This document shows, in pieces, positions 13,905 to 48,114 of a stretch of DNA of 64,000 bases. Position 1 is the first letter of the stretch. Each line of letters begins with the position of its first letter. Origin of the DNA: Desulfobacterales bacterium (lineage in GTDB: Bacteria; Desulfobacterota; Desulfobacteria; Desulfobacterales; G963662235); contig OY759308.1 in assembly GCA_963662235.1 (NCBI GenBank), positions 182,109-246,108 on the forward strand, given 5' to 3'. A program made the position numbers and the translations under genes. The notes beneath the pieces were generated by a model that was given only the letters and a program-made list of their open reading frames with translations, did not search any database and was not told the DNA's origin.

Positions 13905-13962
13905 AAAATATCTCTTAAAACACATAGTGGAAAAAACTCTTTTCCCAAAAAAACGAACTGTT

Positions 13963-14541: not shown

Positions 14542-14592
14542 TAATTTTTGCTATTAGCAACAACATAGAGCTTATCAGAGCTTGACATTTAG

Positions 14593-15914: not shown

Positions 15915-15924
15915 ATTTTTCTCT

Positions 15925-16710: not shown

Positions 16711-16723
16711 TAATAATTGCCCC

Positions 16724-17794: not shown

Positions 17795-17798
17795 AAGG

Positions 17799-21063: not shown

Positions 21064-21121
21064 GAACTTGAAAACAAAATTGGGAGAGGGCAAAAGCTTG
21101 GGAACGAAATTAATTATTTAT

Positions 21122-21586
21122 AATCGTAGGGGCGTATTGCCATACGCCCTCTCAACAATGCAATCACCATCAAAAACAATTGGTGCAATTGTTCGTGGAT
21201 TTTAATCTGCTGTAACAAAACAGATAAATCACTTGATACAAACACTTAGTCAAAAATTGTGGTAACGCAATTATTATGAGAGCTTTGCACATAGCTCTAT
21301 TTTGTAATATTTTTGTGGTGAAGTAGTATATTAATACGTCGAACCCAAAAATATTACAAAAGAGAGCGTCAGTCTTTATAGGGTTTTTAGGAGCTTTTGT
21401 GAAATTATCAAAAGTTGATATTTTATTAAAAACTACTATTTTTTCATAAAAAAACATTATGTGCAAAGCTCTCTATTATGAACATATCATACGCAATGAA
21501 AAAATGAGCATGGGCGTATAGCAATACGCCCCTACGAAAAAACAAATTGTACGGAAATGATTGAATATTACAGGAAGACCTTTAGG
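21122..21586 (+). pseudogene. Decayed RayT-type (REP-associated Y1) transposase C-terminal relic, copy 1, interrupted by a MITE
   Basis: Translates as VGAYCHTP...SPSKTIGAIVRGF*SAVTKQINHLIQTLSQKLW*RNYYE | MITE | HIIRNEK, with in-frame TAA stops. It is bounded by GGGCGTAT-tgcc-ATACGCCC-type hairpins. Confidence 0.7.
21278..21473 (+). mobile_element. MITE, subfamily 1, full copy (196 bp) with 6-bp TSD TATTAT
   Basis: GAGAGCTTTGCACATAGC...CATTATGTGCAAAGCTCTC is flanked by TATTAT at 21272-21277 and 21474-21479. The paralogous uninterrupted site at 47911-47926 reads GCAATTATTATGAACAT. Confidence 0.95.
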
Positions 21587-30300: not shown

Positions 30301-33300
30301 TCTTTTTGCTCATTTTTTTTGCTTAGAAAGGCAGACATACTTCCTAAAACCATATGTCCGTGATTGCCACCAATTCCATTCACATTGCTTGCTAAATAAA
30401 AATTGTCTTCTATCTTTTTTAAATTTGGATTTGCTTTTAAAATAGAATTTTTTTCTACGATGGAGTTCTCTTTCGAATATGCAAAGTTTGGCAAAATAGC
30501 TTTATTCTTTGTCATAAGAAGTAATTTGTTTAGAACAACAGCAGGATTGGCCGCTTTAAAATATGCAAATTGTGATTTTGTGTTGCCGAAAAAAATGTCG
30601 TTTGGAAAACTTGTTTCAATTGCTTGTTTTTCGACTAAATCAAATAATGGGTTAGATACTCCAAAAACATCAATATATTTTATCTCATTTTTTTTTATAT
30701 TTATTTTTTCGTAACAAGTTTCAATTGCTTTGCTATATGCTTCTTCAGAAGGAGATAAAAGATGCTTTGGGACACTTGAAGAAAAAGAGATACCTTTTAT
30801 TTCACCAATGATATCAAGATTGTTTTCGCAAGCTTTTTTATAAGTTGTTAAAATTTGAACAGCAGCACCTTCTCCCATAACATATCCTTCTGCTCTTTTA
30901 TCAAAAAAATAGTTGTCGTGCGTACTCAAAAGAGAAAGCCTTTTAAAAGCTATAATAACAGCAGGATATAAATTTGCATCAACTCCTCCTGTTATTGCAA
31001 AATCGAGCTGTTTTGTTTTAAGGTTTTCCATGGCTGTTTCAAAAGCAAAGGATGAAGAAGCACAAGAAGCATCTATAACAAAATTTTTGCCATTACAGTT
31101 AAAAAAATTGGCAACTCTTCCAGATACAAGATTTGATAAAAGACCTGTTGTTGTGTCTTCGGTGGTTGGTGAAAATCTTTTTTTAAGATTTGTAAGAAGC
31201 TTGTCTGCTATAATGTTTTTGTTTTCGGCATCAAATTCTTTTATAAATTTTTCTATAAGAGGAAGCCTAACTCTTAAAATATTTTCCGATTGATGTGTCC
31301 CTGATATTGTTCCAAATATAACTCCAATATTATTTCCATATCCAAAAAAATCTTCCATTTTTGCTTGGGATATTGCCTCAGATGTTGCATCAAGTGCAAA
31401 TTTTTGTGCATTGTCTATAAACTTTGCAGTAAATGGTGGAATTTTATATTTTGTGTTATTAAATTTATAATCGTCTATAATTCCTGCTTTGATATTTGGA
31501 ATGTGATATCCAGAAAGTTTATCTTCTTTTGCATAATAGTCGTTATGGAATTTGGAAGAAGGCATTGTATCTGATATTGATGTTTTGCCACTTTTTAGCT
31601 TTTCCCAAAAATCAGAAGAATTTTTCACATTTGGTAAAAGAGTTCCCATTCCAACAGCAACAATTCTGTCTTCATTAAAATCGTAAGATAAATCATTAAA
31701 AATTTGTCTTCTTGTTTTTTTATAAGCATCGGTAAATTCTTCAATAATTGAATGATAGTTAATTCCACCAAAACCATATGAGCTTATTGCAGATGCAAGA
31801 GGCATGTTTTTATTCCATTCTTTTGCTTCTTCAATAATATAGAAGGGAGAATCTTGTAAGTTATGGCTTCTGCTTAATTCTTCAAAAAGACCATTTGGAG
31901 GGAGTGTTTTATTTTTTATTGCAAGGATTGCTTTTATAAGCCCTGCCATGCCAGCCCCACCAAGAAGATGCCCTATTTGTGACTTTATTGAACTTATTCC
32001 GATTTTATTATTTGATTGATTGTAAACAGCTTTAAGGGCTTCAATTTCTGTTATATCTCCCATAATTGTTGAAGTTCCGTGTGCTTCAATAAAATCAATA
32101 TTGTTTAAATCAAAATCGTCTCTTAAATTTTTGATACATCGTTTAAGAGCAAGAACTTGCCCATTTTGGTTTGGTGCAGCTATGGCTTTCCCTTTTCCAT
32201 CAGAGCTTGCACCTAATGCTTTTATTAAAGCATAAATTTTATCTTTGTCTCTTATGGCATCTTTTGCCCTTTTTAAGATAACAACTCCAGCTCCTTCTCC
32301 CATCACAAAACCACTTGCTCTTTTGTCAAAGGGGTATGAGCCTATGTTTGATAATGCTCCAAGTTTGCAAAAACCAACAAAGGGCTCTGGAGCAAGATGA
32401 GAATTGACTCCTCCAATAATTGCCAAATCGCTTTTCCCCGATAAGAGTTCTTTTATTCCACAATCTAAAGCTGCAAAGCTTGTTGCACAAGCTGCATCAA
32501 CTGTGTAGTTTATGCCTTCTGCTCCTAAGTGATGAGCAATTCTGCTTGCTTCTATGTTTAGTGCAACAGTATGAACAGCTTCATATTTTGAACCATCTGA
32601 AAATTTTTCTTTTAAATAGTTTTTCAATTCTTTCTTTTTTTCATCACTTAAAGATTGAAACTCGTCTATTTGGTCTAAATAATACAAGATTTCAGGATAG
32701 CTATATTTGAAATGCAAATTGTTGTTTGTTTCATTGCCAAGGCAGCTTGCAACGATAACAGAGGTGTTTTTTCTTAATTTTTTTTTAAGTTTTGTGTCTT
32801 TTTCAATTATCTTTGCATCAAGTGCTGCTTGGAGGGCTGCTTCTAAAACTAATTGTTGGCTTCTTGAAAGATTTTTTCCTTTATTTTCTTCATAGCCATA
32901 TTTTTTCTCGTCAAATGTAAAAACATTATCTTTTATTACGCCTGCAAGAGAGGTGTAGGTTTTGTCTTCTTTTTTTTTATCTTCATCATAAAAAAGGTGA
33001 AAGTTGCAAAAACGCTCACTGTTATCGTGATTTATATCTATAATTGAATATTTTTTATTTACTATGTTGTTCCAAAAGGCTTCTTTGTCTTTTGCATCTG
33101 GATAAATGCACCCAATTCCAACTATTGCTATTTCATCATTTATGATATTTTTTTCATTCGTAAGAGCTTCTAACGAATTTAGATTTTTGTGAAGGGATTC
33201 TTTGTTGTCAAAATAGTTTTGATGAAGCTCTTTTATAGGCACTGTATAATCTGAAAAAACAACAGAATCGCCTGCCATAAAGTTGCCTTTTTCAAATTGT

Positions 33301-35429: not shown

Positions 35430-35479
35430 AATGGAATTATCTGATAAGATCAAAAAGGGCAAAGAGAGGACTTGACCCC
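35430..35479 (+). mobile_element. Right-end fragment (50 bp) of the IS-like element, abutting the truncated recombinase gene
   Basis: AATGGAATTATCTGATAAGATCAAAAAGGGCAAAGAGAGGACTTGACCCC aligns with 40895-40953, including the terminal repeat. Confidence 0.75.
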
Positions 35480-35886
35480 ATTTATTGATTCTGAAAGAAT
35501 GGTAATAAATATAAAGGGTGCAAAGGGCATGAAAGATAGAATATCTTTGCTTTCGAAGCATTTGCTTGAATTATTACGAAATTACTTCAAAGCATATAAA
35601 CCTAAAAAATATCTCTTTGAAGGTCAAAATGGAGGTAAATATTTGCCAACCAGTGTGGCAAATATTTTAAAGAAAGCGGTACTGAAAGCTGGAATCTGTA
35701 AAACCGTGACTACCACATATGCTACGCCACAGTTTTGCAACTCATCTTCTTGAACAAGGCACTGATTTAAGATATATTCAGGATTTGTTGGGGCATAATA
35801 GTTCAAAAACGACTGAAATTTATACTCATGTATCAAAAAAGGCAATTGATAAGATTAGAAACCCAGTCAATGATTTTTTTGATTGA
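35480..35886 (+). pseudogene. Tyrosine recombinase (XerC/D-like), 5'-truncated and frameshifted C-terminal fragment
   Basis: ...IDSERMVINIKGAKGMKDRISLLSKHLLELLRNYFKAYKPKKYLFEGQNGGKYLPTSVANILKKAVLKAGI.KTVT / frameshift near 35710 / [56 protein letters not shown]. The catalytic-region motifs KDR, H.LRH, LLGH and IYTHV are present. Confidence 0.85.
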
Positions 35887-35980
35887 GGAGATCAAAATGA
35901 TAAAAGAAAAATATATACAATTGTGCTTAGCCCGCCAGTTTGGAGAAATAAACACAATAGAGTTTACACAATCGTTAGCG
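35887..35980 (+). other. attI-like junction, copy 1, ending in core site GTTAGCG (35974-35980)
   Basis: This 94-bp segment follows the recombinase stop and is duplicated at 42278-42371. Strong similarity between the copies falls off just past the GTTAG core. Confidence 0.6.
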
Positions 35981-36047
35981 CCAAGTATAGAAAAAACCGT
36001 GCAACAGTAAATAATAATTGAACCAATATCAGGTAATAAATAAACAA

Positions 36048-39000
36048 ATGAATATAGAATGGAATACATTACGAGCATTTAACGGCGATGTTAAAAATGG
36101 ATTTGAAGAACTTGTTTGTCAATTAGCAAGAGCAGAACAAATTTTAAACAAATCTAAATTCATTAGAGTTGCTGCACCTGACGGTGGAGTTGAAGCGTAT
36201 TGTATCCTTTCTGATAATACAGAATATGGTTGGCAAGCCAAGTTTTTTGCGTCAATGGGCGATTCACAATGGACGCAACTTGATAAATCATTTAAAACAG
36301 CCTTTGCAAAGCACCCTGATTTGGTTAAGTATTACATCTGTATTCCATTAGATAGACAAGATCCGAGAATAACAATTACAAAGGGAAACCGTAAAGGGCA
36401 ACAAGTGAATCACTTTATGGATAAGTGGAACGCGAAAGTAACAGAATGGGAAGCATTTTCAAAATCAAACAACAGAACTATTGAATTTGAATTTTGGGGT
36501 AATTCAGAAATCTTTGAACGCTTAAGCAAAAAAGAAAACGAAGGGAAACTTTACTATTGGTTTGGCAAGGAAGAATTTTCTGATGAATGGTTCAAACAAA
36601 AACTTGATGAGAATATTAAAAATCTTGACAAACGCTACACCCCTGAACTGAATTTTGATTTACCTATTGCCAAGATATTTGACGGAATTAGCAGAGATAC
36701 TTATTTCAACGACCAATTCAATTCATATTTTGATGATTTACTTAGGCATTTTAGAAAAGCTGTTACTCATATTAAAAAAGCAAAGGTAAAAAACTATATT
36801 GATAAAATCAATTCAATAGTCACAACATTCAGACAACAATGTGAGCAAATTGATTTTGCTGAAATAAGTATTATTGACAATATTGGTTTGATATCACTGT
36901 TAGAAAGTGTCAGGAAAATTATTAACGATTTAATTCAAAAATTATATGAAATTGATTTCGCACTCAAAAAAGAAAAGAAAGAAAAAAGTAAATACGAAAG
37001 CGATACAAATAAATTTGGTTGGGATATAGAGCATTTCAGAAAATTGAATAGTTCAATTTATGAGTTTATTAATTTTCTAAATAGCACAACGGTTCTTTTG
37101 TCAAATAACCCTTTTATGCTTTTAACAGGGGAAGCAGGAATTGGAAAATCACATTTACTTGCTGATGTTGCAGTAAAAAGAAATAAACGAAATCAATTCT
37201 CAATTTTATTGCTTGGTCAACATTTCACAGAGGAAGAACCTTGGAGTCAAATCAAAAAACAACTTCAATTAAATTGTGAAAGAGATACATTTCTTTCTTC
37301 GCTAAATGCAAAAGCTGAAACAACACAGAGCAGAATTTTAATTCTGATAGATGCAATAAATGAAGGAAAGGGAAAAGAGTTGTGGAAAAATTATATTGCA
37401 GGTTTCATTACCGCAGTAAAAAAATTTCCAAACATAGGTGTGGTTTTTAGTATTAGAACTTCTTATGAAAAACTTTTAATTCCTAATCCCTTAAAGGAAA
37501 AGGATGAAATTTTAAAAGTCATTCATTATGGTTTCTCATACCACGAATACGAAGCATCAAAACGTTTTTTTGAAAATTTTGGTATTAAACAACCAAGTAT
37601 TCCTTTGCTTCACCCTGAGTTTTCCAATCCGCTATTCCTAAAATTATTTTGCGAGGGATTAAGTAAAAAAGGATTGCACGTAATACCTGACGGTTACGAG
37701 GGCATTTCTACCGTCCTTAATTTTTATCTTGAAGCTATTAACAATACAGTTTCGGAAAAACACAAATTGCCTGAAAACTTAAATCTTACTCAAAAAGTTG
37801 TAAAAAAAATCGCAAGTCAAATTGCTGATACTGATAATACTTACATAAAGTTTGATAATGCGTATAGTACTGTTACTCAATTTGCCAAAGACAACTCAAT
37901 TACCGAACCTGCTCAATTTTTTGAGGATTTAATACGGGAAGGACTTCTTACTCAAAACGTGTATTGGGAAAAAGGTGGAAATCCTTTTAACGGTGTGTAT
38001 ATTTCGTATGAAAGATTCAGTGACCATTTGGTTTGTGCTTACTTGTTGGAAAATCATTTTGACAAAAAGAATCCAACAAGCTCTTTTGCTGTCGGTAATA
38101 AACTACATAGATTGCTTGAAGACCAATATAAATCATATTACAACAAAGGTATTATTGAGGCTCTTTCAATTCAATTACCTGAATTGGCAAACATAGAACT
38201 ATTTGAAGCTGCACCTCACGCAAAGGAATTTAAAATTGTGGCACAGGCATTTGTTGAAAGCATTATTTGGAGAAAAAAAGAAACAATCAATGAGAAACTA
38301 AAAGATTACATAAATGAAGTCGTAATTCAAAAACACGACTTGCATGATGATTTTATTAGCACAATTCTTTTAATTACATCACAGCCGAAACACTATTTCA
38401 ATAGCGATTTCCTTCACAATCATTTGATGAAATTCAGTATGCCTGATAGAGATTCTTGGTGGACACCTTTTATTCATCATCAATACCCAAGCTATTCAGA
38501 TGAAATCACATCTATTCAACGAATGATTGATTGGGCTTGGACAGATGATAAACGAGAGAATATTTCTGACGAATCAATTCGCTTAATGTGTCAAACTTTG
38601 TTTTGGTTTACAACAAGCACCAACAGGGCGTTAAGGGATTCTACAACAAAAGCAATAATTTGTCTTTTAGAAGAACGAATAAGCGTTTTGATACAACTCA
38701 TTAAAACATTTGAACAGGTTAATGACCCTTATGTTTTGCAACGAGTATTTGCGGTTGCGTTTGGTTGTGCTGTTAGAACGAGCAAAACTGAATCTTTAAA
38801 AGAATTAGGAAACTGCATTTATGAATCGGTTTTCAATACGAAAAAAGTAATTCCTGACATTTTGTTAAGGGATTACGCAAGAGGAATTGTTGACTACGCA
38901 GTTTTCAAAGGTATCAAGTTTGAGTTTAATTTAAAGAAAATAAAACCTCCTTTCAAAAGCGATTTGCCAACTTCATTTCCAAGTAATGAAGATATTGAGA

Positions 39001-40316
39001 AGTACGAATATGACTATAAAGCAAAAGAATTCAAAGATTATTATTGGAGTTTGAATTCAATTATTAGTTCTATGAAAACAAATGTCGGAGGTCAGATGTA
39101 TGGTGATTTTGGTAGATATACATTTGAAAGTGCCTTTGATGGTTGGAGAGTGAACGCACAGCTATTAAGCAATTTGGCAGTAAAATGGATTGTTGAGAAA
39201 TATGGCTATGATGTAGAAAAACATGGAAAGTTCGATAGAAAGATTCCATGTGATGGAAGACATTCTCATATGACAGAACGAATTGGGAAAAAATATCAAT
39301 GGATTGCTTTTTATGAATTGCTTGCAAGAGTTTCAGACAACATTCCGTTTTATGAATATTCATATAGCCAAAATGCAAAGCCTGTTGACTATAAAGGACC
39401 TTGGGAGCCGTATGTTAGAGATATTGACCCAACAATTACAATAAAAGGAAATCTTGAAAATAAAAATGAAAAATTTTGGTGGAATCTTGTTGATTACAAC
39501 AATTGGAACCTTCCAAACAAAGAATGGATTTTCAAAACTGATGACTTACCAAATCCTTTGGGTATGATAAGTGTGTTTGACAAAGACGGTATTGAATGGT
39601 TGGTACTTGAAATTCTCAAATCATGGACAGAACCTGCAGACATCGGAGAAGATAAATATGAAAATCCGCATAAAGATTTATGGTATCAAATTAAAAGTTA
39701 TATAACTAATAAAAAAGACCATAAAAAAATTTTGAAGTGGTCAAAAGAAAAAAACTTTATGGGGCGTTGGATGCCAGAATCGACAAATAGGTATCAAATG
39801 TTTAGCAGAGAATATTATTGGTCAGCAGCTAATGAAACATTTAGAGACCCTTATTATAGTGGTGAAAGTTGGTCTAAAATTCACGACAACGAAACACATC
39901 AATTAATTGGCAAAGTTGCCGTAACAACCATTGATTATTTGTGGGAAGAAGAATTTGACGCTTCAAAAGAATCTACGATTAGTTTTTACAAACCCACAGA
40001 AATTCTTTTTAATCTTCTTGATTTACAATATTCAAAAATTGAAGGTCAACTTTTGAATAAAGATGGACAAATGATTTGCTTTGACCCTTGTGCAACATAC
40101 CCAACACATTCGTGCCTTGTGGTAAGAAAAAACGACTTGGTTCAAAAATTAGAAGACAATAACTTGAATATTTTTTGGACTGTCTTAGGCGAAAAACTAA
40201 TTATTGGTGGAGACCATTCAAAACGTAACGAATGGATAGGGCGATTAAATATTTCAGGAGTTATACATTACGAAAAAGAATTACTAAAACATATTCCATA
40301 TTATATTGAAATATGA
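36048..40316 (+). CDS. Avs-like antiviral STAND NTPase with N-terminal Mrr-like PD-(D/E)XK nuclease domain (cassette 1)
   Basis: 1422 aa counted from the ATG at 36048. The N-terminal FEELVCQLARAE...VAAPDGGVEAYC...GWQAKFF fits the Mrr-cat pattern D..(Q/E)xK. The P-loop is LLTGEAGIGKSHLLAD (nt 37128-37151) and Walker B is ILILIDAINEG. A ~900-aa C-terminal region carries no recognisable repeats and is the putative sensor. Confidence 0.65.
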   Translation: MNIEWNTLRAFNGDVKNGFEELVCQLARAEQILNKSKFIRVAAPDGGVEAYCILSDNTEYGWQAKFFASMGDSQWTQLDKSFKTAFAKHPDLVKYYICIPLDRQDPRITITKGNRKGQQVNHFMDKWNAKVTEWEAFSKSNNRTIEFEFWGNSEIFERLSKKENEGKLYYWFGKEEFSDEWFKQKLDENIKNLDKRYTPELNFDLPIAKIFDGISRDTYFNDQFNSYFDDLLRHFRKAVTHIKKAKVKNYIDKINSIVTTFRQQCEQIDFAEISIIDNIGLISLLESVRKIINDLIQKLYEIDFALKKEKKEKSKYESDTNKFGWDIEHFRKLNSSIYEFINFLNSTTVLLSNNPFMLLTGEAGIGKSHLLADVAVKRNKRNQFSILLLGQHFTEEEPWSQIKKQLQLNCERDTFLSSLNAKAETTQSRILILIDAINEGKGKELWKNYIAGFITAVKKFPNIGVVFSIRTSYEKLLIPNPLKEKDEILKVIHYGFSYHEYEASKRFFENFGIKQPSIPLLHPEFSNPLFLKLFCEGLSKKGLHVIPDGYEGISTVLNFYLEAINNTVSEKHKLPENLNLTQKVVKKIASQIADTDNTYIKFDNAYSTVTQFAKDNSITEPAQFFEDLIREGLLTQNVYWEKGGNPFNGVYISYERFSDHLVCAYLLENHFDKKNPTSSFAVGNKLHRLLEDQYKSYYNKGIIEALSIQLPELANIELFEAAPHAKEFKIVAQAFVESIIWRKKETINEKLKDYINEVVIQKHDLHDDFISTILLITSQPKHYFNSDFLHNHLMKFSMPDRDSWWTPFIHHQYPSYSDEITSIQRMIDWAWTDDKRENISDESIRLMCQTLFWFTTSTNRALRDSTTKAIICLLEERISVLIQLIKTFEQVNDPYVLQRVFAVAFGCAVRTSKTESLKELGNCIYESVFNTKKVIPDILLRDYARGIVDYAVFKGIKFEFNLKKIKPPFKSDLPTSFPSNEDIEKYEYDYKAKEFKDYYWSLNSIISSMKTNVGGQMYGDFGRYTFESAFDGWRVNAQLLSNLAVKWIVEKYGYDVEKHGKFDRKIPCDGRHSHMTERIGKKYQWIAFYELLARVSDNIPFYEYSYSQNAKPVDYKGPWEPYVRDIDPTITIKGNLENKNEKFWWNLVDYNNWNLPNKEWIFKTDDLPNPLGMISVFDKDGIEWLVLEILKSWTEPADIGEDKYENPHKDLWYQIKSYITNKKDHKKILKWSKEKNFMGRWMPESTNRYQMFSREYYWSAANETFRDPYYSGESWSKIHDNETHQLIGKVAVTTIDYLWEEEFDASKESTISFYKPTEILFNLLDLQYSKIEGQLLNKDGQMICFDPCATYPTHSCLVVRKNDLVQKLEDNNLNIFWTVLGEKLIIGGDHSKRNEWIGRLNISGVIHYEKELLKHIPYYIEI

Positions 40317-40328
40317 AAGAAAACCAGG

Positions 40329-40459
40329 CGGTAACATCGTATATAAAACATTTGGCAGTCAGTGGGTTATTGAGCTTTCTACTCCGTATCAAAAGTACTT
40401 GTAATTTGACATGAAAGTGTTTCTAAATGCCAAACATTTCATATACGTAACCGTTAGAG
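40329..40459 (+). other. attC-like site of cassette 1 (131 bp)
   Basis: Layout:
- inverse core CGGTAAC (40329-35), then a 3-nt spacer;
- L'' GTATATAAAACATTTGGCA;
- L' TGCCAAACATTTCATATAC (40428-46);
- spacer GTAACC;
- core GTTAGAG (40453-59).
GGCGgTAAC is the reverse complement (one mismatch) of the cassette start GTTAgCGCC at 35974. Confidence 0.75.
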
Positions 40460-40466
40460 AAAAAAC

Positions 40467-40953
40467 AAATAAAGGGGTCAAGTCCTCTCTTGGCTCTTTA
40501 ACTGTTTTTTAATAAAAAATGACATGTCCAGACCATTAAGAATACAATATCCAGATGCATAGTATCACGTAATGAATCGTGGTAGATGAGGTGAAAAGAT
40601 ATTTTTGTCACCGGATGATTTTGAAGATATTCCTGAAACCAAAAACCTTGCACCGGATACTGATAAAATAATATACCATGTATGTAAAGCATACAATGTT
40701 GAAGAATCTATGCTGTATATATCCCGGAGAGGTTGCTTTAATGAACCAAGAAATGTCTGTATCTATTTAGTAAGATATTTAAGGGGTGATACTTTAAAGG
40801 AAACCGGAGTGCTTTTTGGAATTAAAAAACATAGCACTGTCAGCAGTATAATAGATAGGGTCAAGCTTAATATAAAATCCAGTCAAAAATTTAAAAAACG
40901 GATAATGGAATTATCTGATAAGATCAAAAAGGGTCAAGAGAGGACTTGACCTC
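40467..40953 (+). mobile_element. IS-like element, internally deleted non-autonomous copy with decayed Y1-HUH/DnaA_C-like transposase
   Basis: ~20-bp TIRs: GGGGTCAAGTCCTCTCTTGGC (40474-) and CAAGAGAGGACTTGACCTC (-40953). The ORF remnant 40524-40949 reads MSRPLRIQYPDA*YHVMNRGR*GEKIFLS. It is then fused directly to the C-terminal DnaA_C-like HTH part (...RNVCIYLVRYLRGDTLKETGVLFGIKKHSTVSSIIDRV...). Confidence 0.8.
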
Positions 40954-41063
40954 TTCAATTACAAATCATTTCAGCGGACAGCTAATGCTCGCCACTGGAT
41001 TTCACGTCATATGGGAATAAAAATATAGATTGACGATGCCTCCTATTTGTCTTATGTTTAATT

Positions 41064-41348
41064 ATGAAAATATTCAAATGGAATTCAGAAAAAAACGAAA
41101 TTCTTGCAACTAATAGAGGAATTACGTTTGATGAAATAGTTCAAAGAATAAAATCTGGAGCTAAAGTAATCGAAACAGATCATCCAAATAAAGAGAAATA
41201 TCCAAATCAAAAAATAATGATTGTCGATGTGGATGGATATGCTTACTTAGTTCCTTTTGTGATTGATGGTGATGAATACTTTCTTAAAACAATCATTCCT
41301 AGCAGGAAAGCAACAAAGAAATATCTTGAAGGTAAAAATAATGGATAA
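41064..41348 (+). CDS. brnT: BrnT-family toxin (DUF497)
   Basis: FKWNSEKNEILATNRGITFDEIV...YLVPFVIDGDEYFLKTIIPSRKATKKY matches the BrnT pattern (F.WD..KN...HGI.F.E ... RIISAR.AT..E...Y). Confidence 0.75.
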   Translation: MKIFKWNSEKNEILATNRGITFDEIVQRIKSGAKVIETDHPNKEKYPNQKIMIVDVDGYAYLVPFVIDGDEYFLKTIIPSRKATKKYLEGKNNG

Positions 41349-41622
41349 AAAACATAATAAAATAATTCTTGACGATTATGAACAGGAAATACTGGAAGCA
41401 TATGAAAACGGTAAGCTTAGTCCATCGAAATCAGAAACAGACTTTAAGACTATTGCCCAAAATACATTAAAAAAGAATCGAAAAATTAATATAAGAATTT
41501 CAGAAAATGACCTTTCGGCATTACAAAGGAAAGCTGCCAGAGAGGGAATTCCGTATCAAACTTTAATTGGTAGTATACTTCACAAATACGCAAGTGGATA
41601 TATTAAAGAAACTGTTTTTTAA
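41341..41622 (+). CDS. brnA: BrnA-like antitoxin (RHH/CopG-type C-terminus)
   Basis: The ATG at 41341 overlaps the brnT stop. ...KKNRKINIRISENDLSALQRKAAREGIPYQTLIGSILHKYASG is typical of BrnA-type antitoxins. Confidence 0.7.
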   Translation: MDKKHNKIILDDYEQEILEAYENGKLSPSKSETDFKTIAQNTLKKNRKINIRISENDLSALQRKAAREGIPYQTLIGSILHKYASGYIKETVF

Positions 41623-41646
41623 CCAAAAGAGATATAATTAACATTA
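41617..41646 (+). other. Truncated attC-like site of the brnTA cassette (inverse core TTTTAAC overlapping the stop), cut by the next IS copy
   Basis: TTTTAAC (41617-23) versus the expected CTCTAAC, the complement of the cassette-start core GTTAGAG at 40453. Only ~30 nt remain before the IS left end at 41647. Confidence 0.45.
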
Positions 41647-42015
41647 AAATAAAGGGGTCAAGTCCTCTCTTGGCTCTTTAGCTGTTTTTTAATAAAAAAT
41701 GATATGTCCAGACCATTAAGAATACAATATCCAGATGCCTGGTATCATGTAATAAATCGTGGTAGACGAGGTGAAAAGATATTTTTGTCAAAGGAAGATT
41801 ATCAATCTTTTATTATTCTTCTTAAAGAGCTTAACGAAGTATATAATGTTAAAATAGTAGCTTATTGCCTCATGGAAAACCATTACCACCTCCTGATAAA
41901 AACACCTGATGCAAATCTTTCCAGGGCAATGAGACATTTAAATGGTGTCTACACACAGCGATATAATAAACGTCACAATTATGATGGGCAGCTTTTTAGA
42001 GGGCGTTATAAATCT
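41647..42015 (+). pseudogene. IS-like element left part with the N-terminal half of the Y1-HUH transposase, truncated by a MITE
   Basis: The left TIR GGGGTCAAGTCCTCTCTTGGC is at 41654. The ORF from 41704 reads MSRPLRIQYPDAWYHVINRGRRGEKIF...CLMENHYHLLIKTPDANLSRAMRHLNGVYTQRYNKRHNYDGQLFRGRYKS (HUH motif HYH). It ends at the MITE boundary at 42016. Confidence 0.8.
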
Positions 42016-42211
42016 GAGACCTTTGAACAATGTCATTTTTGTTCAATTTGAGGGTAAAGTAGTATATTAATACTTCAAGCCCGAAAATCGGGCAAAACAT
42101 GGCAAGCCTTTTAATATAAGCTTTTTAAAAGAAAAAGTAATGTTTTGTTTTTAAAGTTCAAAGTTCAAATTTAACAAATTTTTTAAAAATTAGCGTTTGT
42201 TCAAAGGTCTC
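42016..42211 (+). mobile_element. MITE, subfamily 2, full copy (196 bp) at a rearrangement junction (no TSD)
   Basis: GAGACCTTTGAACAATG...GCGTTTGTTCAAAGGTCTC. The left flank is transposase coding sequence (aaatct). The right flank is the recombinase 3' end (atactc). Confidence 0.8.
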
Positions 42212-42371
42212 ATACTCATGTATCAAAAAAAGGCAATTGATAAGATTAGAAACCCAGTCGATGATTTTTTTGATTGAGGAGATCAAAATGATAAAAGAAA
42301 AATATATACAATTGTGCTTAGCCCACCAGTTTGGAGGAATAAACACAATAGAGGTTACACAATCGTTAGGG
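42212..42371 (+). pseudogene. Second copy of the recombinase 3' end (last ~20 codons, frameshifted) plus attI-like junction ending in core GTTAGGG (42365-42371)
   Basis: ATACTCATGTATCAAAAAAAGGCAATTGATAAGATTAGAAACCCAGTCGATGATTTTTTTGATTGA... aligns with 35822-35980. Strong similarity falls off just past the GTTAG core. Confidence 0.75.
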
Positions 42372-42414
42372 GCAAGGCAAGGAGCTGCATACAAGAAATG
42401 GGAAACTTACTATA

Positions 42415-45096
42415 ATGGAATATATAAGAAAAAATATTGAACGTAAAATTAACTTTCATGAGTACAATAATAATCAGGAAGAGTTAAAGGTTCTTTATCA
42501 AGCCTATTTAGAGTATTTGATGATATACACTCTTGGATATTTGTGGAATAAGAACTTTTCTATTTGTGATTCTGAAACAAAATCCTACATATTAGACATT
42601 ATACAAAGACCTTCTATTGGTGATATTGAAATGGCTTGTAGGAAATTGGATGTGAATAAAGAAATTTTTAAAAATAGAGCTCTATCTCGTAGGTTCTCGA
42701 AATATCCTCAACTAAGAAATGAAAAAATAGGACATGGATATGTTTTCTCTGACTCTTCTTCTGAATTTGTAGGAGAGTTAAAAGAGTTTTGTGAAAACAT
42801 AAAAAATTCTGAACATACAATTTTTAAAGAGGATATTGATATAATAAAGGTGCTGAAACAGGAGAATGGTGCTTATAAAGGAATTACCTATAAGTCTGAT
42901 GGGTCTGATTATTACCCATGGAGTTTCCCTGTTGGTTCAAAAAAATTTGAAATAGGTGATATATATGGATATCATTCGAATTGTAAATATTTTAAGATAT
43001 CTCCTTTTGTAGAAATCCAAAATGAAAGTGAGTATTACACTTTTAGCTCAATATATGAACCACTATCTGGAAAATGTAAATACAACCGACTATTAAAAAG
43101 TGGAGTAGAATTTTTTGAGAATATTGAGTTCTGCAATTTGGATATTGAATCCGATAATGTAAAAAGAAAAACCAAGAATGGAACAATAATTAGTTTATTT
43201 CAGAAAAACTATACAAAATTTATAGAAACTTCCATTAAAAATAAAGTACTCGACTTTTTATTAAAATCCAAGCATTCGGTTACAGCTACAGTTTGGGGAC
43301 ATGGAGGTGTCGGGAAAACCGCAACAATTCAAAAAATATGTGATGAATTAGGTGCTGGCAATAATCGATATTTTGACTATATAATATTTACGACAGCTAA
43401 GGATAGATTCTACAACTATTTAACAGGTAATATTGAAGAATTAAACGAAAGGATTAACTCATGTGAAGAGTTGATTAAGTCAATTAATCAGGTAATTGTG
43501 AATGAGCCTGTCTTGAATATTGATAATATTACAGGCTTTCAACAAAAAATGTTGGTTATAATAGATGACTTTGAGACATTTGACGATGATGAAAAGTTGA
43601 AAATAGCTGATTTTATCAGAAAACTTGATGCATCAAAACACAAAGTACTAATTACAACAAGAGCAAATATTGTAATAGGTGAGGAAATTAAAACAAACGA
43701 ATTATCTTCTGATGAAACTTCACTGTTTTTAAAACAGGTATTTGCAAATGAGCTTGAAGAGCAAATATCAATAAAACGACATATTGAAGTTTTAGGAAAA
43801 CCCGAAATTAAAGATAAAGTACATTGGTTAACCAGTGGTAGACCTTTGTTTATATATCAATTGGCCTTTATTATTGCTCAAAAAGGTAATGTTGAAGACG
43901 CTTTGGAATTTGATATTAAAAAGTCTGATAATGCAATTGAGTTTCTATATGGAAGAATCTACAATTATTTATCAGATTTGGCAAAAGATATTTTTGTTGC
44001 CATAAGCTTGTTAGTAACAGAAAATGATTTGAGTAATGTGATAAAAAAATTATCCTACATACTAAATATTGAAGGAAATCAAGATGCTTTTGATAGTGCA
44101 ATAAGTGAATTAGTTAAATTGAAAATACTTGAAGTTAAAGAGGATAATTTCTTTTACATATATTCCAAAGAAATCCTTACTATCATGTCCCTGATGTATA
44201 ATAAAAGACCTGATAGTTTTAAAGGGAATTGTAATAGACGTCTCTTGCAAATCAGCAGAGATAAAAAGTTAGATAACGAACAAGCTCTATTGCAGTTTGC
44301 AAATACAAATCGTTATTCAAAGAATGAAGAAGAAGTTGTTAGTTCATATAAACAAATTTTGAATCGGGGAAATGCCCCAAAAAAAGTAAGACTACAGGCG
44401 ATTTTAAACTTAACGGCTTATCTCGTAATTGACCGTGGCAAAAGAGATTCTGCATTAAATATTTTAGAAGAATATTTTTCAAAATTCAATGATAAAGGAC
44501 AATATATCAAAATGATAGCCACATATTATTGGGCTAATGCTTCAGATGACCATAAGGAAAAATCGATTAAAATTTTAGGTGATTTTCTTTCTTCTCATCG
44601 TAACCTAAACGTTGATATAAATCTTGAACTATTAGGATTGCTTCTTACTTATAAAACGATTTTTGCTATTTCTAAGAAAGAAAGATTAAAAGATAGTTTG
44701 CATTATGATGAGATTTCGGGAACAGATTTTTCTAAGGCAAACGAGGCTTTAAAACAAGATTATAGGAATATTATTAAGTATCACGGTTGGCCTCTTTTTA
44801 ATTTTGTTGATTCTATTGATTTTAGTTCAATTTCTTCTGGTTCTAGACAAAATATTGTTACAGGTTTTTATCAGTTTTCAGAACTTTTTACAAGACTTGG
44901 AGATTATAAAAATGCAGCAAAAATTTGCGTATTTGCAATTGATAAATTCCCTGATAATTTTCAGAAGTTATTTCGAGCTAAATTAGGTCGTATTAAAAGT
45001 TTTAACTATAAACCATATGACAAACCTAAATCAAAAGAGATGTCTGATTTTGGTTTAATACTATCTAATGCAATTAATAAAAAGCCCAGCCCCTAA
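42415..45096 (+). CDS. STAND (NB-ARC-like) NTPase with an unassigned ~280-aa N-terminal domain and a helical-repeat C-terminus (cassette 3)
   Basis: 893 aa. Walker A is VWGHGGVGKTATIQKI (nt 43297-43320) and Walker B is MLVIIDDFETFDD. The C-terminal ~350 aa look helical/TPR-like. The N-terminus contains LRNEKIGHG (R-x5-H). Confidence 0.65.
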   Translation: MEYIRKNIERKINFHEYNNNQEELKVLYQAYLEYLMIYTLGYLWNKNFSICDSETKSYILDIIQRPSIGDIEMACRKLDVNKEIFKNRALSRRFSKYPQLRNEKIGHGYVFSDSSSEFVGELKEFCENIKNSEHTIFKEDIDIIKVLKQENGAYKGITYKSDGSDYYPWSFPVGSKKFEIGDIYGYHSNCKYFKISPFVEIQNESEYYTFSSIYEPLSGKCKYNRLLKSGVEFFENIEFCNLDIESDNVKRKTKNGTIISLFQKNYTKFIETSIKNKVLDFLLKSKHSVTATVWGHGGVGKTATIQKICDELGAGNNRYFDYIIFTTAKDRFYNYLTGNIEELNERINSCEELIKSINQVIVNEPVLNIDNITGFQQKMLVIIDDFETFDDDEKLKIADFIRKLDASKHKVLITTRANIVIGEEIKTNELSSDETSLFLKQVFANELEEQISIKRHIEVLGKPEIKDKVHWLTSGRPLFIYQLAFIIAQKGNVEDALEFDIKKSDNAIEFLYGRIYNYLSDLAKDIFVAISLLVTENDLSNVIKKLSYILNIEGNQDAFDSAISELVKLKILEVKEDNFFYIYSKEILTIMSLMYNKRPDSFKGNCNRRLLQISRDKKLDNEQALLQFANTNRYSKNEEEVVSSYKQILNRGNAPKKVRLQAILNLTAYLVIDRGKRDSALNILEEYFSKFNDKGQYIKMIATYYWANASDDHKEKSIKILGDFLSSHRNLNVDINLELLGLLLTYKTIFAISKKERLKDSLHYDEISGTDFSKANEALKQDYRNIIKYHGWPLFNFVDSIDFSSISSGSRQNIVTGFYQFSELFTRLGDYKNAAKICVFAIDKFPDNFQKLFRAKLGRIKSFNYKPYDKPKSKEMSDFGLILSNAINKKPSP

Positions 45097-45222
45097 CACT
45101 TTGTATAAGTAATGGCAGGCAAAGTGCTACATATCAAAATTTGTAGCCCGCTCAAACTGCGTGGCGGTTTGACAGGAAAGTACCACGCAATCTGCTACTA
45201 CTCATACAATTTACCGTTGGGC
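45091..45222 (+). other. attC-like site of cassette 3 (132 bp)
   Basis: Layout:
- inverse core CCCTAAC (45091-97), overlapping the TAA stop, then spacer ACT;
- L'' TTGTATAAGTA;
- L' TACTCATACAA;
- spacer TTTACC;
- core GTTGGGC (45216-22).
GCCCCTAAC is the exact reverse complement of the cassette start GTTAGGGGC at 42365. Confidence 0.8.
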
Positions 45223-45254
45223 ACAAGCAAAAAAACATACTGCAAAATTAGAGC

Positions 45255-46535
45255 ATGAGTGAATTTGACAATATAAAAATAGATGAGCTTCGTAAGGAGA
45301 TTCGGACATTTAATAATGATGAAAATGTACATAGATTAGAAAACTATTACAATTCCAAATCATTACCTGAGATTATGGGTTCGAGTAGAAAAGAATTAGC
45401 TCATAGCAATTTTCTTGCATGGATACTAAACAATGACGAAAGCCACATGCTTCGAGAGTATCCACTCAAGAAATTCTTAGAATTATTGGTTCTTTATAGT
45501 AAAGAAAAACAATTAAAGGCTTACAAAGAACTGTATGACTCAATTATTGTCTCTGACTTTGAATTAGAGAAGACTTTTATTGAAACAGAAAGAGCAATAA
45601 AAGGAGTTGGAAGACTTGATATTTATATTGAAACATCAATAAAATATGAAGATAAACGAAAATTGGTAAGATTAATAGTTGAAAATAAAGTTGGTACAAA
45701 AGAACATAGCGACCAAACTACAAAGTATTATGACTATTATGAAAAAATCAAGAAACAGCAGGATGAAATTAATATTTATGTGTTTCTTACACCTATTTCA
45801 AGTTTAGATTTAATGGAACTTGAAGAACCAGAATGCAGTTGCAAGGAATATATTCAAGTTAATTATCAATCAATCGTAGACTTTTTATTAGAACCTACAC
45901 TTCAAAAAAACATAACAGACAAGACAAAATTTATTATTACAGAATATCTTCAATCTTTAAGCCAGCCGACATTGGATAAAGAAGATGAAGAATATAAACA
46001 AGGATTAATTATGGCTTTAGGCACAGACGAAAGAAATCTCTTGACAAAATTTTGGGATAAAAATCAGAAATTAATACTTGCAGCGCTCTATGCAATTAGT
46101 TCTGATCCTGAACAGGATAAAGACACTAGAGATAGTGCTTCAAATGCTATTGGGAACCTATCTAATTCAGGGAAAAATAAAAGCTTATGTTCTATAAAAT
46201 TTAATGGAGTTGTCGAGGCTGAAAAGATTAAGAAATCTGATATTGGATTTTCAACAATAATGATTCTTGAAAAGAAAAAGCTGATTAATGATGAATCAAT
46301 TGAATTTCTAAAAAATGATAAATCATGTAGTTTCCGATTATTAAAATCAGCAGAAGAGATAACTGAAGGAGAAATAAAATATCGTAGATATAGACATAAC
46401 GAAGAACCCGAGTTGATTTACAATGATATTGGATATTATGTTGCAAGGAATTGGGGGACAAATAATATTGATAAGTTTATTAAAAACATGAAAGATAAAT
46501 TTAAGGAGCTTGAATATATTATACATGAAGAATAA
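45255..46535 (+). CDS. PD-(D/E)XK nuclease superfamily protein (cassette 4)
   Basis: ELAHSNFLAWILNNDESH and GRLDIYIE...LIVENKVGTKEHSDQTTKYY give a D...E-x-K motif. The C-terminal ~130 aa are unassigned. Confidence 0.65.
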   Translation: MSEFDNIKIDELRKEIRTFNNDENVHRLENYYNSKSLPEIMGSSRKELAHSNFLAWILNNDESHMLREYPLKKFLELLVLYSKEKQLKAYKELYDSIIVSDFELEKTFIETERAIKGVGRLDIYIETSIKYEDKRKLVRLIVENKVGTKEHSDQTTKYYDYYEKIKKQQDEINIYVFLTPISSLDLMELEEPECSCKEYIQVNYQSIVDFLLEPTLQKNITDKTKFIITEYLQSLSQPTLDKEDEEYKQGLIMALGTDERNLLTKFWDKNQKLILAALYAISSDPEQDKDTRDSASNAIGNLSNSGKNKSLCSIKFNGVVEAEKIKKSDIGFSTIMILEKKKLINDESIEFLKNDKSCSFRLLKSAEEITEGEIKYRRYRHNEEPELIYNDIGYYVARNWGTNNIDKFIKNMKDKFKELEYIIHEE

Positions 46536-46542
46536 TGCCAGT

Positions 46543-46673
46543 GCCCAACACGCAATAAAAAACATAGGGTGGAAAGTGCTAAATTTGAACGACATAACAT
46601 TTAAGAAACGGTTTGGTAACTTGATAGATAAGTGCTTCGAAGCGTCTTCCGTTTCTTATTGCCACCGTTAGTT
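46543..46673 (+). other. attC-like site of cassette 4 (131 bp)
   Basis: Layout:
- inverse core GCCCAAC (46543-49), then spacer ACG;
- L'' CAATAAAAAAC;
- L' GTTTCTTATTG;
- spacer CCACC;
- core GTTAGTT (46667-73).
GTGCCCAAC is the exact reverse complement of the cassette start GTTGGGCAC at 45216. Confidence 0.8.
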
Positions 46674-46694
46674 GTTATTAAAAAAACCGAACCA

Positions 46695-47579
46695 ATGGAA
46701 CAACATTTTAATTCTTCTGAATACATTAAGCATTTAGCAAATGAATTAATTAGGAATTTTGCTTTTTCAAGATCGGCAACAACACCTGTTTTAGTTGGTA
46801 GTGCCAGAGAAAAAGAAGTAATAAGAAAATTAGAATTATTACTACCAAAATCTATAGGGATTGGCTCTGGGTGTATAATTGATAGTTTTGGGAAAACCAG
46901 TAAACAGATGGATATAGTTTTATTTGAAAAAGATTTATGCCCAGTTTTTTGTATTAATGAATCCTCTGAAACCACATATTATCCGTGCGAAGGGGTTATT
47001 GCTGCTGGAGAGGTTAAAAGTAGCCTGAATTCAAAAGAATTAACAAATATATTTAATAAGGCTCAATCTGTTAAAGAATTAAAGCGGTTTACTGAGCTTG
47101 AGAAAAGTGATTTGTCAGGTTCAGGTTATTATGCATTCAGAAAATATGGAAATAGAACTAGTTTTGCAGGTGCTCCATCGGAAGATTACGACCAAGTTAA
47201 TAAATATACAGACCAAATTTTTTGTTTTGCTCTTTGTGGAGACCTGGAAATAACTGTTGAAACTCTTTCTGAAAAATATGAAAATGAACTAAAGAGAATC
47301 AATTTTATTAATGAGGTTAATCTAATCTCAATTTTGAATTATGGATTGATATTTTATTACAATGAAAAGGATAATACAATTAAAAATAATCTTAAAGATG
47401 GAGACTCCTTTTTTATAACTGGTAAACGTGAAAATAACTTTGAATTCCTTTTGTCTGCTTTACATAATGCAATTAATGATGGGAGAACGGTAAATATTAG
47501 AGCATATAACAGATACATTTCATTAAGCAATAGTGTTTCATTAATTGGTGGAATTAGAAAAAAAATTAACAACAGCTAA
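46695..47579 (+). CDS. DUF6602-like protein with a PD-(D/E)XK-type motif (cassette 5)
   Basis: The ATG at 46695 is preferred (MEQHFNSSEY...). GSAREKEVIRKLELLLPKSIGIGSGCIIDSFGKTSKQMDIVLFEKD...CEGVIAAGEVKSSL gives D...E-V-K. The family assignment is from memory and was not searched. Confidence 0.5.
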   Translation: MEQHFNSSEYIKHLANELIRNFAFSRSATTPVLVGSAREKEVIRKLELLLPKSIGIGSGCIIDSFGKTSKQMDIVLFEKDLCPVFCINESSETTYYPCEGVIAAGEVKSSLNSKELTNIFNKAQSVKELKRFTELEKSDLSGSGYYAFRKYGNRTSFAGAPSEDYDQVNKYTDQIFCFALCGDLEITVETLSEKYENELKRINFINEVNLISILNYGLIFYYNEKDNTIKNNLKDGDSFFITGKRENNFEFLLSALHNAINDGRTVNIRAYNRYISLSNSVSLIGGIRKKINNS

Positions 47580-47703
47580 CAGTGCATATATTTATTGGGG
47601 GTTGAATCGCTAATTTCAAAGTAATTACACTAAATTAGCTCCTTAACGTGGGATAAAGAATTGCTTCGAAATCCCCCAACAAAACATATGCTTAACGTTA
47701 GAG
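47574..47703 (+). other. attC-like site of cassette 5 (130 bp)
   Basis: Layout:
- inverse core AGCTAAC (47574-80), overlapping the TAA stop, then spacer AGT;
- L'' GCATATATTTATTGGGGG;
- L' CCCCCAACAAAACATATGC;
- spacer TTAAC;
- core GTTAGAG (47697-703).
AACAgCTAAC is the reverse complement (one mismatch) of the cassette start GTTAGtTGTT at 46667. Confidence 0.75.
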
Positions 47704-47731
47704 AAATAAAGGGGTCGAGTCCTCTCTTGAC
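47704..47731 (+). mobile_element. Left-end fragment of the IS-like element, immediately after the attC core site
   Basis: AAATAAAGGGGTCGAGTCCTCTCTTGAC matches the left ends at 40467 and 41647. Similarity is lost after ~28 nt. Confidence 0.65.
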
Positions 47732-47763
47732 TCAAAGTCGTACAAACATAGTACAAAATCGTA

Positions 47764-48027
47764 AATCGTAGGGGCGTATTGCCATACGCCCTCTCAACAA
47801 TGCAATCACCATCAAAAACAATTGGTGCAGTTTGTTCGTGGATTTTAATCTACTGTAACAAAACAGATAAATCAATTGATACAAACACTCAGTCAAAAAT
47901 TGTGGTAACGCAATTATTATGAACATATCATACGCAATGAAAAAATGAGCATGGGCGTATAGCAATACGCCCCTACGAAAAAACAAATTGTACGGAAATG
48001 ATTGAATATTGCAGGAAGACCTTTAGG
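47764..48027 (+). pseudogene. Decayed RayT-type transposase relic, copy 2 (uninterrupted; empty site for the 21278 MITE)
   Basis: Collinear with 21122-21277 plus 21480-21586. It shares the same in-frame TAA stops and carries one extra frameshift. It is bounded by the same GGGCGTAT..ATACGCCC hairpins. Confidence 0.7.
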
Positions 48028-48114
48028 GGCTGATAGAATTTCTTAGTGCGAATAATATTGCCCAATAGTAAAAAAAATTATTTCGTTATTTTGCAATCTT
48101 TAAAGAGACACTTA

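Follow-up and report, generated by a model that had tools for sequence, protein, structure and literature searches.

The 64,000-nucleotide stretch of contig OY759308.1 from a Desulfobacterales bacterium analysed here (hereafter, the window) contains a locus composed of two integron-platform fragments, A (35484–40459) and B (42217–47703), which lie within a variable island. Both fragments comprise, in the same order, what is left at the 3' end of a co-oriented tyrosine recombinase gene, a site similar to the integron attachment site attI, and gene cassettes. In fragment A, the remnant and the attI-like site are followed by an Avs2 cassette and its attC recombination site, and in fragment B by three cassettes. 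We estimate at roughly 75% the probability that these are decayed platform fragments whose cognate enzyme was most likely a short Xer/XerA-like recombinase and not the canonical integron integrase IntI. Integron cassette arrays, decayed integrases, defence cassettes and clusters of attC sites lacking integrases (CALINs) are already known, and this array does not differ from them in kind; what is probably new is the type of integrase attached to it and the variant of attC.

The initial annotation of this DNA had interpreted the genes as an integron-type cassette array. For four cassettes, this interpretation is supported by the G|TT boundaries, stem covariation, bottom-strand folding, the attI-like site with a recombinase remnant, and the recurrence of the same layout elsewhere. 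A single decayed array had been assumed; its decay is evident from the truncated and frameshifted recombinase gene and from the breaks at IS200-like elements and at elements resembling miniature inverted-repeat transposable elements (MITEs), but the array exists as two fragments. The statement that all genes between 36.0 and 47.6 kb are on the + strand is correct for the long open reading frames (ORFs). The DNA of this region has a G+C content of about 30%, as does the genome of the host, an uncultured flagellated bacterium. The nearest named relatives of its ClpB protein are from Cloacimonadota, at about 60% identity, so that a placement by this protein is tentative.

The four cassettes, all on the + strand, are cassette 1 (Avs2; 35974–40455, approximately 4.48 kb), cassette 3 (STAND NTPase; 42365–45218, 2.85 kb), cassette 4 (PD-(D/E)XK protein; 45216–46669, 1.45 kb), and cassette 5 (DUF6602/NucC-like PD-DExK nuclease; 46667–47699, 1.03 kb). 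As had been noticed earlier, each of the four genes is followed by a site of 130–132 nt with one architecture: site 1 (40329–40459, 131 nt), site 2 (45091–45222, 132 nt), site 3 (46543–46673, 131 nt), and site 4 (47574–47703, 130 nt), all also on the + strand. Their plan is xxxxAAC, a spacer of 2–3 nt, an imperfect stem of 11–20 bp enclosing a centre of 60–90 nt, a spacer of 5–6 nt, and GTTRnnn. In the window, the sites begin with xxxTAAC or xCCCAAC and end with GTTAGnn or GTTGGGC.

The start of each cassette is complementary to the 3' end of the same cassette. Beyond the invariant GTT/AAC, five of the seven positions match in cassette 1 (start GTTAGCGCC, own 3' end GGCGGTAAC), and six of seven in cassette 3 (GTTAGGGGC and GCCCCTAAC), cassette 4 (GTTGGGCAC and GTGCCCAAC), and cassette 5 (GTTAGTTGTT and AACAGCTAAC). 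In the 20 non-cognate start/end comparisons, only one to four of seven positions match, and a simple binomial estimate gives a joint chance of about 3e-11 for the cognate complementarity. The same rule had been proposed for a fifth unit, brnTA as 'cassette 2', for which it does not hold (see below).

A covariance model named R2, trained on 30 sites of other genomes and on no window sequence, was run with filters off. On both strands of the 64 kb it finds exactly four sites, all on the + strand, with scores of 58–85 bits and rough E-values of 1e-12 to 2e-19: site 1 scores 84.6 bits (E 1.9e-19), site 2 80.0 bits, site 3, the weakest of the four, 58.1 bits (E 1e-12), and site 4 65.9 bits. The next-best R2 match on either strand reaches 17 bits. 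A weak match to both attC models (17–18 bits, E 0.01–0.03) lies at 17925–18036 on the - strand, in a stretch of higher G+C content (14–20 kb), and is probably due to chance. An Rfam scan of the window revealed only a tRNA and no attC-type match.

Scanning for the stem only was rejected as stand-alone evidence, as it gives too many false positives at 30% G+C: 15 matches were obtained at the top threshold compared to 1–10 in shuffled sequences, so the stem by itself is not significant. It was replaced by cassette-chain detection and covariance models. Since the stem is not significant in DNA of this composition, the weight falls on the boundary rule, the position after the stop codon, and the covariance model. 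The frequency of stem-only matches in AT-rich DNA, together with hairpins of the repetitive extragenic palindromic (REP) type in the region, would fit an explanation in which the four sites are unrelated intergenic hairpins, either terminators or REP elements, with complementarity arising by chance. This is hardly credible, because the four sites do not resemble terminators, the independent model gives E-values not exceeding 1e-12, the complementarity is specific to cognate pairs, and the stem covaries. The terminator-like matches that were found in this connection correspond to IS200-like hairpins and the sdhB terminator.

In the predicted folds, the bottom strand is more stable than the top strand in site 1 (-14.7 vs. 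-12.4 kcal/mol), in which the 19-bp L stem has three mismatches, all A·C on the top strand, and in site 2 (-21.5 vs. -16.1 kcal/mol); the bottom-strand fold of site 4 has a z-score of -3.8. In site 3, an 11-bp L stem can be recognised by eye. The four attC sites are only about 50% identical to each other, which suggests that the window cassettes may have diverse origins.

The family to which these sites belong can be characterised better from a stem alignment of 15 sites from six sources. Compensatory changes on both sides were observed in 16 of the 19 stem pairs; 78.5% of the cells in the alignment pair, a share that falls to 37% or less when the partner column is shifted, and none of 500 shuffles reached the observed values. 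Of the integron inverse core R'' (RYYYAAC) and core R' (GTTRRRY), AAC and GTT are invariant in all 15 sites. The spacers of 2–3 nt and 5–6 nt are unpaired between the R and L boxes, and the loops range from 4 to 105 nt. The top strand has an A·C mismatch at stem pair 7 in 12 of the 15 sites and at pair 12 in 14 of them; on the bottom strand, these mismatches are G·T wobbles. Because of this, the bottom strand folds better: in folding predictions it is the more stable strand in 28 of 34 sites, by 2.2 kcal/mol on average (Wilcoxon p = 1.3e-4).

In canonical attC sites, two bulged extrahelical bases, G and T of the bottom strand, determine the choice of the strand. Such bases are not a consistent feature here; an extra C was found in only three of 30 family sites and in the VEB-1 site considered below. 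Of the fold features that had been named as a check, unpaired spacers are seen and extrahelical bases are mostly absent; site 3 prefers an internal hairpin. The conserved G·T wobbles could mark the recombinogenic strand. An enzyme that lacks the IntI helix reading extrahelical bases, combined with sites that lack such bases, would make a coherent pairing.

Exact start/end complementarity of 9–10 nt was also found in six other loci (L002, L005, L007, L100, L102, and L106). When the attC sites of L005 and L007, which belong to two flavobacterial genera, are compared (for example, 13795–13927 and 15323–15457), they are 57–77% identical including the loops, resembling the homogeneous repeats of Vibrio chromosomal integrons.

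The sequence of about 90 nt directly upstream of each first cassette behaves, judging by its sequence relationships, as an attI site. Copy 1 is located at 35887–35976 (+), contains repeated ACAAT motifs, and has its crossover point at G35974|TT. Copy 2 (42278–42367, +; crossover point G42365|TT) was recognised from the attI alignment and from a direct repeat of 151 nt (35835–35985 and 42226–42376, 96% identity), which stands upstream of cassettes 1 and 3. The repeat comprises the last recombinase codons and about 90 nt, and extends a few bases past GTTAG.

The same sequence of about 90 nt was found in the L001 and L002 loci and, by a pattern scan of metagenomes, in 17 further loci. The copies are alike up to ...CAANN|GTT, and the similarity ends exactly at GTT. 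At least 17 different sequences follow the attI-like site, and all of them begin at the same GTT; such a pattern is the mark of a single point that has repeatedly received site-specific insertions. Among the first cassettes for which the DNA extends far enough, eight end in the reverse complement of the bases with which they begin, followed by an attC-like site. A short ORF (MIKEKYIQLCLARQFGEINTIEFTQS...) begins within the attI-like site and continues past the GTT into each first cassette; the window has it at 35897–36010 and from 42288, and it occurs in many attI copies, including those of L091, L095, L102, and L104. This ORF could encode a leader peptide similar to ORF-11 of attI1, or could have arisen as a side effect of conserved binding sites.

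Recombinase copy 1 (35484–35886, +) was identified from translations and a match to Pfam PF00589. It retains approximately 133 C-terminal codons (IDSERMV...), with a 1-nt frameshift near 35715, and is about 90–95% identical to the P0001 protein and to the intact 278-aa protein of L091. It matches the IntI profile at positions 242–313 only, and its best colinear match is XerA. Copy 2 (42217–42277, +), identified by translation and as part of the direct repeat, consists of the last 20 or so codons (about 60 nt). The recombinase gene of the window is therefore dead, being truncated and frameshifted in one copy and reduced to a terminal remnant in the other.

The contig scan returned, among the matches listed, recombinase relatives of at most 65% identity, and the close relatives were found by searching contigs encoding homologues and by the attI DNA pattern. 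Among the closest homologues, fragmentary genes on short contigs predominate. Intact genes are present in L091 (278 aa, about 95% identical to the window fragment) and in L005 (Flavobacteriaceae) and L007 (Winogradskyella ursingii), both of which encode 375 aa. The flavobacterial-type recombinases of L005 (9539–10669) and L007 (9554–10681), as well as those of L006, L009, L015, L022, and L029, have an N-terminal extension of about 107 aa with no Pfam match, which is absent from the 278-aa enzyme of the L091 type.

These proteins have the tyrosine recombinase fold (PF00589, 4e-44 for L007), and the catalytic R-K-H-R-H-Y motifs, including IYTHV, are readable in L091. The IntI-specific additional domain, reportedly described by Messier and Roy in 2001, is said to be an insertion around patch III. 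The XerA profile NF040815 was passed with 243, 235, and 233 bits (cutoff 220) over profile positions 1–260 of 263, whereas the IntI profile TIGR02249 was failed with 196–215 bits (cutoff 265), in two stretches skipping profile positions ~197–240. The proteins have 27 residues where VchIntIA (2a3v) has 70, and they are colinear with the Pyrococcus abyssi XerA (4a8e). Compared with IntI1, the identity is 30%, with gaps opposite IntI1 residues 195–255. The window fragment itself spans the position of the IntI insertion and leaves no room for it. The failure of TIGR02249, the short segment, and the gaps together indicate that the hallmark domain of IntI is absent. Most likely, then, the recombinase is not a canonical IntI and would be a short Xer/XerA-like enzyme without the IntI-specific insertion. 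A role in dif resolution appears unlikely, because the pseudogenes occur in multiple copies.

The connection between this recombinase and the cassettes is seen best in other genomes. In L005 and L007, the stop codon of the recombinase is followed 55–65 nt later by ...tatccaattGTTGT, where the first cassette starts, and the 3' end of this cassette is the exact 10-nt complement of its own start. Across the array loci, the first cassette starts at a fixed GTT 55–110 nt past the recombinase stop. Co-oriented attC matches downstream of the recombinase were detected in at least 16 loci of many families, mainly of Bacteroidota; the orders represented are Flavobacteriales, Cytophagales, Bacteroidales, Marinilabiliales, and Saprospirales. 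A recombinase adjoining an attI that heads cassettes was found in the window (as remnants), L001, L002, L005, L007, and L091. On a crude neighbor-joining tree, the array-linked recombinases form one clade, and among the matches listed none of more than 50 recombinases outside it has an array; many of the latter have flanks of 10 kb and are still arrayless, and IntI1 branches elsewhere. Nearly all clade members without an attC match have less than 1.6 kb of contig downstream, with the exception of L031 and L039.

This linkage bears on the possibility that the cassettes owe their formation and movement to a canonical IntI whose gene lies elsewhere or lay in a former host, with the neighbouring Xer-like gene being a bystander or a part of another mobile element. 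A member of this attC family, that of blaVEB-1, does reside in class 1 integrons, the recombinase is dead in the window and absent or fragmentary at most metagenomic attI copies, and CALINs are reported to be common. We nevertheless consider this explanation unlikely, because the recombinase–attI–array order recurs in at least 16 loci of many families, the linkage is limited to one recombinase clade, and no canonical intI is present within ±10 kb of the arrays examined, nor was a second IntI1-like gene found within this distance at any of them.

Less probable still is that the recombinase and the 90-nt sequence form a mobile module which inserts at the GTT of existing attC sites, so that the sequences to the right of it are its targets. 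The window and L001 each contain two copies of the module, the L094 and L099 loci have an attC upstream of the attI-like unit, and this unit has a defined 5' edge even without a recombinase. However, L005, L007, and L002, whose recombinase gene is intact or nearly so, and L001 carry attC sites only downstream, their upstream sequences being non-array DNA such as the dapB operon in L001, and the internal copies of the window are explained by rearrangement mediated by insertion sequences and MITEs.

Several points weigh against decayed platforms with an Xer-like enzyme, in addition to the rough E-values and the crude tree mentioned above. The training sites of R2 were gathered with an earlier model, R1, whose set included the window sites. 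The minimum-energy fold of site 3 is an internal hairpin and not the attC fold, with a z-score of about 0. L031 and L039 belong to the array clade and show no attC match in their 2.7–10 kb of downstream DNA. In L023 and L024, the attC sites lie on the other strand and upstream of the recombinase. The majority of metagenomic attI copies have no more than a remnant of the recombinase gene, if any. The capture of a family site by a class 1 integron indicates that a canonical IntI elsewhere in the array genomes could do the work. Finally, recombination of attC by an Xer-like enzyme is something we infer from sequence and genomic context.

Some of these points can be placed in a wider frame. Given that the recombinase gene is mostly fragmentary or absent at the metagenomic attI copies, attI and its array persist without the recombinase. 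As for L023 (806–937, -) and L024 (5777–5906 and 7466–7597, -), their arrangement is the divergent layout of classical integrons, and both array orientations may exist in the recombinase clade.

The attC of blaVEB-1 provides a link to clinical integrons. This 133-bp site, located in a class 1 integron (L083, 1340–1472; Klebsiella pneumoniae plasmid CP110729.1), scores 70.3 bits with R2, compared to at most 9 bits for the short attC sites of aadA1, aadB, aadA2, and cmlA in the same arrays. It has the 3- and 6-nt spacers and the two A·C positions of the family, with one extra bulged C (G on the bottom strand), and shares loop motifs with window site 2 (45091–45222). Environmental VEB variants with 92% identity (L086–L088) keep this attC. 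Since the VEB-1 attC matches the family, a family site was captured by a class 1 integron; this strengthens the identification of the attC sites and at the same time keeps alive the explanation based on a canonical IntI. These similarities point to a cassette pool of the Bacteroidota type as a possible source of blaVEB. The L089 contig (65 kb), which carries a VEB homologue with 82% identity, contains no attC and therefore does not show the birthplace of the cassette. Directly upstream of the VEB-variant cassettes, L087 (651–1952) and L088 (870–2171) encode a group II intron reverse transcriptase, an arrangement reminiscent of group IIC-attC introns.

By analogy with known integrons, the recombinase would join the folded bottom-strand hairpin of an attC to attI at G|TT and thereby insert a circular cassette, and excision would proceed by attC × attC exchange. 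A resident cassette would accordingly start with the TT-proximal half of its own R' box and end with the complementary R'' box. The catalysis by an Xer-like enzyme, the single-strand chemistry, and the role of the mismatches are all inferred from this analogy. In the window, the IS200-like and MITE-like elements have cut the array, and because of these cuts and the dead enzyme gene, the cassettes are fixed unless a recombinase acts in trans.

A broader proposal, which we regard as tentative, is that a second lineage of integrases, about 280–375 aa in length and without the insertion, runs attI × attC capture in Bacteroidota and other members of the Fibrobacteres–Chlorobi–Bacteroidetes (FCB) group, using attC sites in which two fixed G·T wobbles on the bottom strand take the place of bulged extrahelical bases. 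If so, the IntI-specific domain would not be required for the recombination of folded attC sites, many CALINs would be complete integrons missed by the domain-based definition of IntI, and clinical cassettes such as blaVEB would have come from this pool. If the Xer-like enzymes are active, the definition of the integron would widen, the puzzling attC clusters without an integrase would be explained in part, and Bacteroidota would become a large reservoir of cassettes. The determinant of single-strand, strand-specific recombination would then be testable, with extrahelical bases and the IntI helix on one side and mismatches on the other. By matching this family, the blaVEB-1 attC offers a tangible clue to the environmental source of this extended-spectrum β-lactamase cassette. 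The window itself is of more modest significance: its array is dead and in pieces, lies within a variable defence island, and is noteworthy for its very large cassettes (4.5 kb for Avs2).

In the integron literature and in IntegronFinder, IntI is defined by an extra domain that is held necessary for attC recombination. A 2024 preprint counts Bacteroidota among the clades previously found without integrons; elsewhere, integrons are listed for Bacteroidota in general terms. In the study by Smyshlyaev et al. (10.1101/542381), insertion-less relatives of IntI are mentioned only in IS91/IS3 elements. Our literature search, whose coverage was incomplete, found no description of attC arrays headed by an insertion-less recombinase and none of the origin of the VEB attC; the novelty of such arrays is probable.

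The window-type platforms have much in common with sedentary chromosomal integrons, especially the 'inverted' group (e.g., in Treponema denticola) and archaeal integrons, in which intI is co-oriented with the cassettes and attI is located just downstream of it; the order of integrase, attI, and cassettes is thus the same. These integrons also have promoterless-looking cassettes, the G|TT crossover, attC sites with R''/R' and L''/L' boxes, an unpaired spacer and a variable loop, a bottom-strand bias, toxin–antitoxin and defence cargo, and frequent integrase decay. In contrast to them, the window-type integrase lacks the IntI insertion and scores as XerA-like; its attC sites mostly have no bulged bases and instead have two conserved A·C mismatches; the spacers are of 2–3 nt vs. 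5–6 nt; the cassettes reach 4.5 kb; and the hosts of the window-type arrays belong to the FCB group (Bacteroidota, Ignavibacteria-like bacteria and, for the window itself, a genome tentatively related to Cloacimonadota).

IntegronFinder would probably classify the window as a CALIN, with attC sites but no domain-bearing IntI. Unlike a CALIN, it has a recombinase remnant and an attI, and the recombinase is intact in relatives; for this reason, the 'lacking integrase' label may reflect the definition of IntI rather than biology. XerA, XerC, and XerD and the 'Integron-like' recombinases of IS91/IS3 elements share with the window-type enzyme a SAM-like N-terminal domain, the catalytic domain, and the lack of the IntI insertion. 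Unlike the Xer resolvases, the window-type genes are present in several copies, are often pseudogenised, and always adjoin attI and cassettes rather than acting at dif, and unlike the 'Integron-like' recombinases, they have no adjacent IS91 transposase in the array loci examined. The blaVEB-1 cassette has an attC of this family, but its home is a class 1 integron, which is mobile and has IntI1.

The cargo of the four cassettes is predicted to be of the defence type, in agreement with the earlier description of it as almost entirely such. The ORF of cassette 1 (36018–40316, with the likely ATG at 36049) encodes a full-size Avs2 of 1432 aa, which matches PADLOC PDLC02164 with 1615 bits and PDLC02162 with 1435 bits over residues 11–1419. 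Cassette 3 encodes an 893-aa STAND NTPase (42415–45096) with Pfam matches to NB-ARC (4e-11) and NACHT. The 426-aa PD-(D/E)XK protein of cassette 4 (45255–46535) matches Pfam PDDEXK_4 (1e-21) and the PADLOC candidate system PDC-S26 (91 bits). Cassette 5 (likely ATG at 46695, ending at 47579) encodes a protein matching Pfam DUF6602 (2e-22), PADLOC PD_DExK (109 bits), and NucC. According to the preprint by Darracq et al. (10.1101/2024.07.02.601686), Vibrio integron cassettes also encode anti-phage systems, which are streamlined variants of known ones. Unlike these, the window cassettes encode a full-size Avs2 and an 893-aa STAND NTPase, and both the phylum and the integrase type are different.

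Between the two fragments lies an IS200-like/brnTA block (40467–41789, +), which is outside the integron and 96.9% identical to L107 16912–15591. It consists of a defective IS200-like element (40467–40960), brnT (41064–41348), brnA (~41341–41622), and the start of a second IS200-like element from 41647, and its Pfam matches are Bac_DnaA_C, BrnT_toxin, CopG/BrnA, and Y1_Tnp. The initial annotation had taken brnTA for cassette 2 with a truncated attC starting at 41617, and this has to be withdrawn. The covariance model gives no match there; TTTTAAC at 41617 is the stop region of brnA, after which comes the hairpin at the left end of the IS200-like element. The module is not bounded by att sites, and the same module is present in the close relative L107. 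The flanks of the L107 locus are 95–98% identical to the window, and no attC, attI, or recombinase remnant was found in this locus.

At 12650–18760, the IS200-like and MITE repeats of L107, which are those of the window as well, flank genes for a TIR-domain protein of 493 aa and another protein of 215 aa. As L107 lacks the integron parts and carries cargo with a TIR domain, the locus between the giant gene bordering it and sdhB is a variable defence island, independent of integron activity. The giant gene is an ORF of 3632 aa (24315–35213, -), which borders the island on the left; its L107 orthologue has polyketide-synthase domains (ketoacyl-synt, Acyl_transf_1, and PP-binding).

The breaks in the platforms coincide with mobile elements. 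An IS200-like right-end remnant (35430–35482, +) of the type encoding Y1_Tnp and a DnaA_C helix-turn-helix, with the hairpin GGTCAAG-N6-CTTGACC, cuts the 5' side of recombinase copy 1; it was identified from repeat D4, inverted repeats I1, I2, and I12, and homology to L107 16495–16429. A MITE-like insertion (42008–42219) has terminal inverted repeats of ~17–23 nt (GAGACCTTTGAACAA), with the 23-nt inverted repeat I11 being 87% complementary, and fuses a truncated IS200-like gene to recombinase remnant copy 2. Fragments A and B both terminate at the R' box GTTAGAG of an attC (site 1 and site 4, respectively) adjoining an IS200-like hairpin. Outside the integron, beyond site 4, the region 47704–48081 contains an IS200-like hairpin remnant (47704–47733) and a MITE-like inverted-repeat element (47751–47993); it is 93–98% identical to L107 and includes inverted repeat I3.

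Elements or remnants with the GGTCAAG-N6-CTTGACC hairpin are located at 40467–40960, 41647–42013, 35430–35482, and 47704–47733. The left-end hairpin of the IS200-like elements is found twice at a distance of 0 or 7 nt past the attC R' box GTTAGAG (40453 and 47697). This pattern suggests that the elements target the R' box or else that a single ancestral junction has since been duplicated. The MITE-like element at 47751–47993 has inverted repeats of 41 nt around GGGGCGTATTGCCATACGCCC and is present in two copies in L107, and a related copy is located near 21 kb in the window (20.9–21.2 kb, e.g., 21099–21197).

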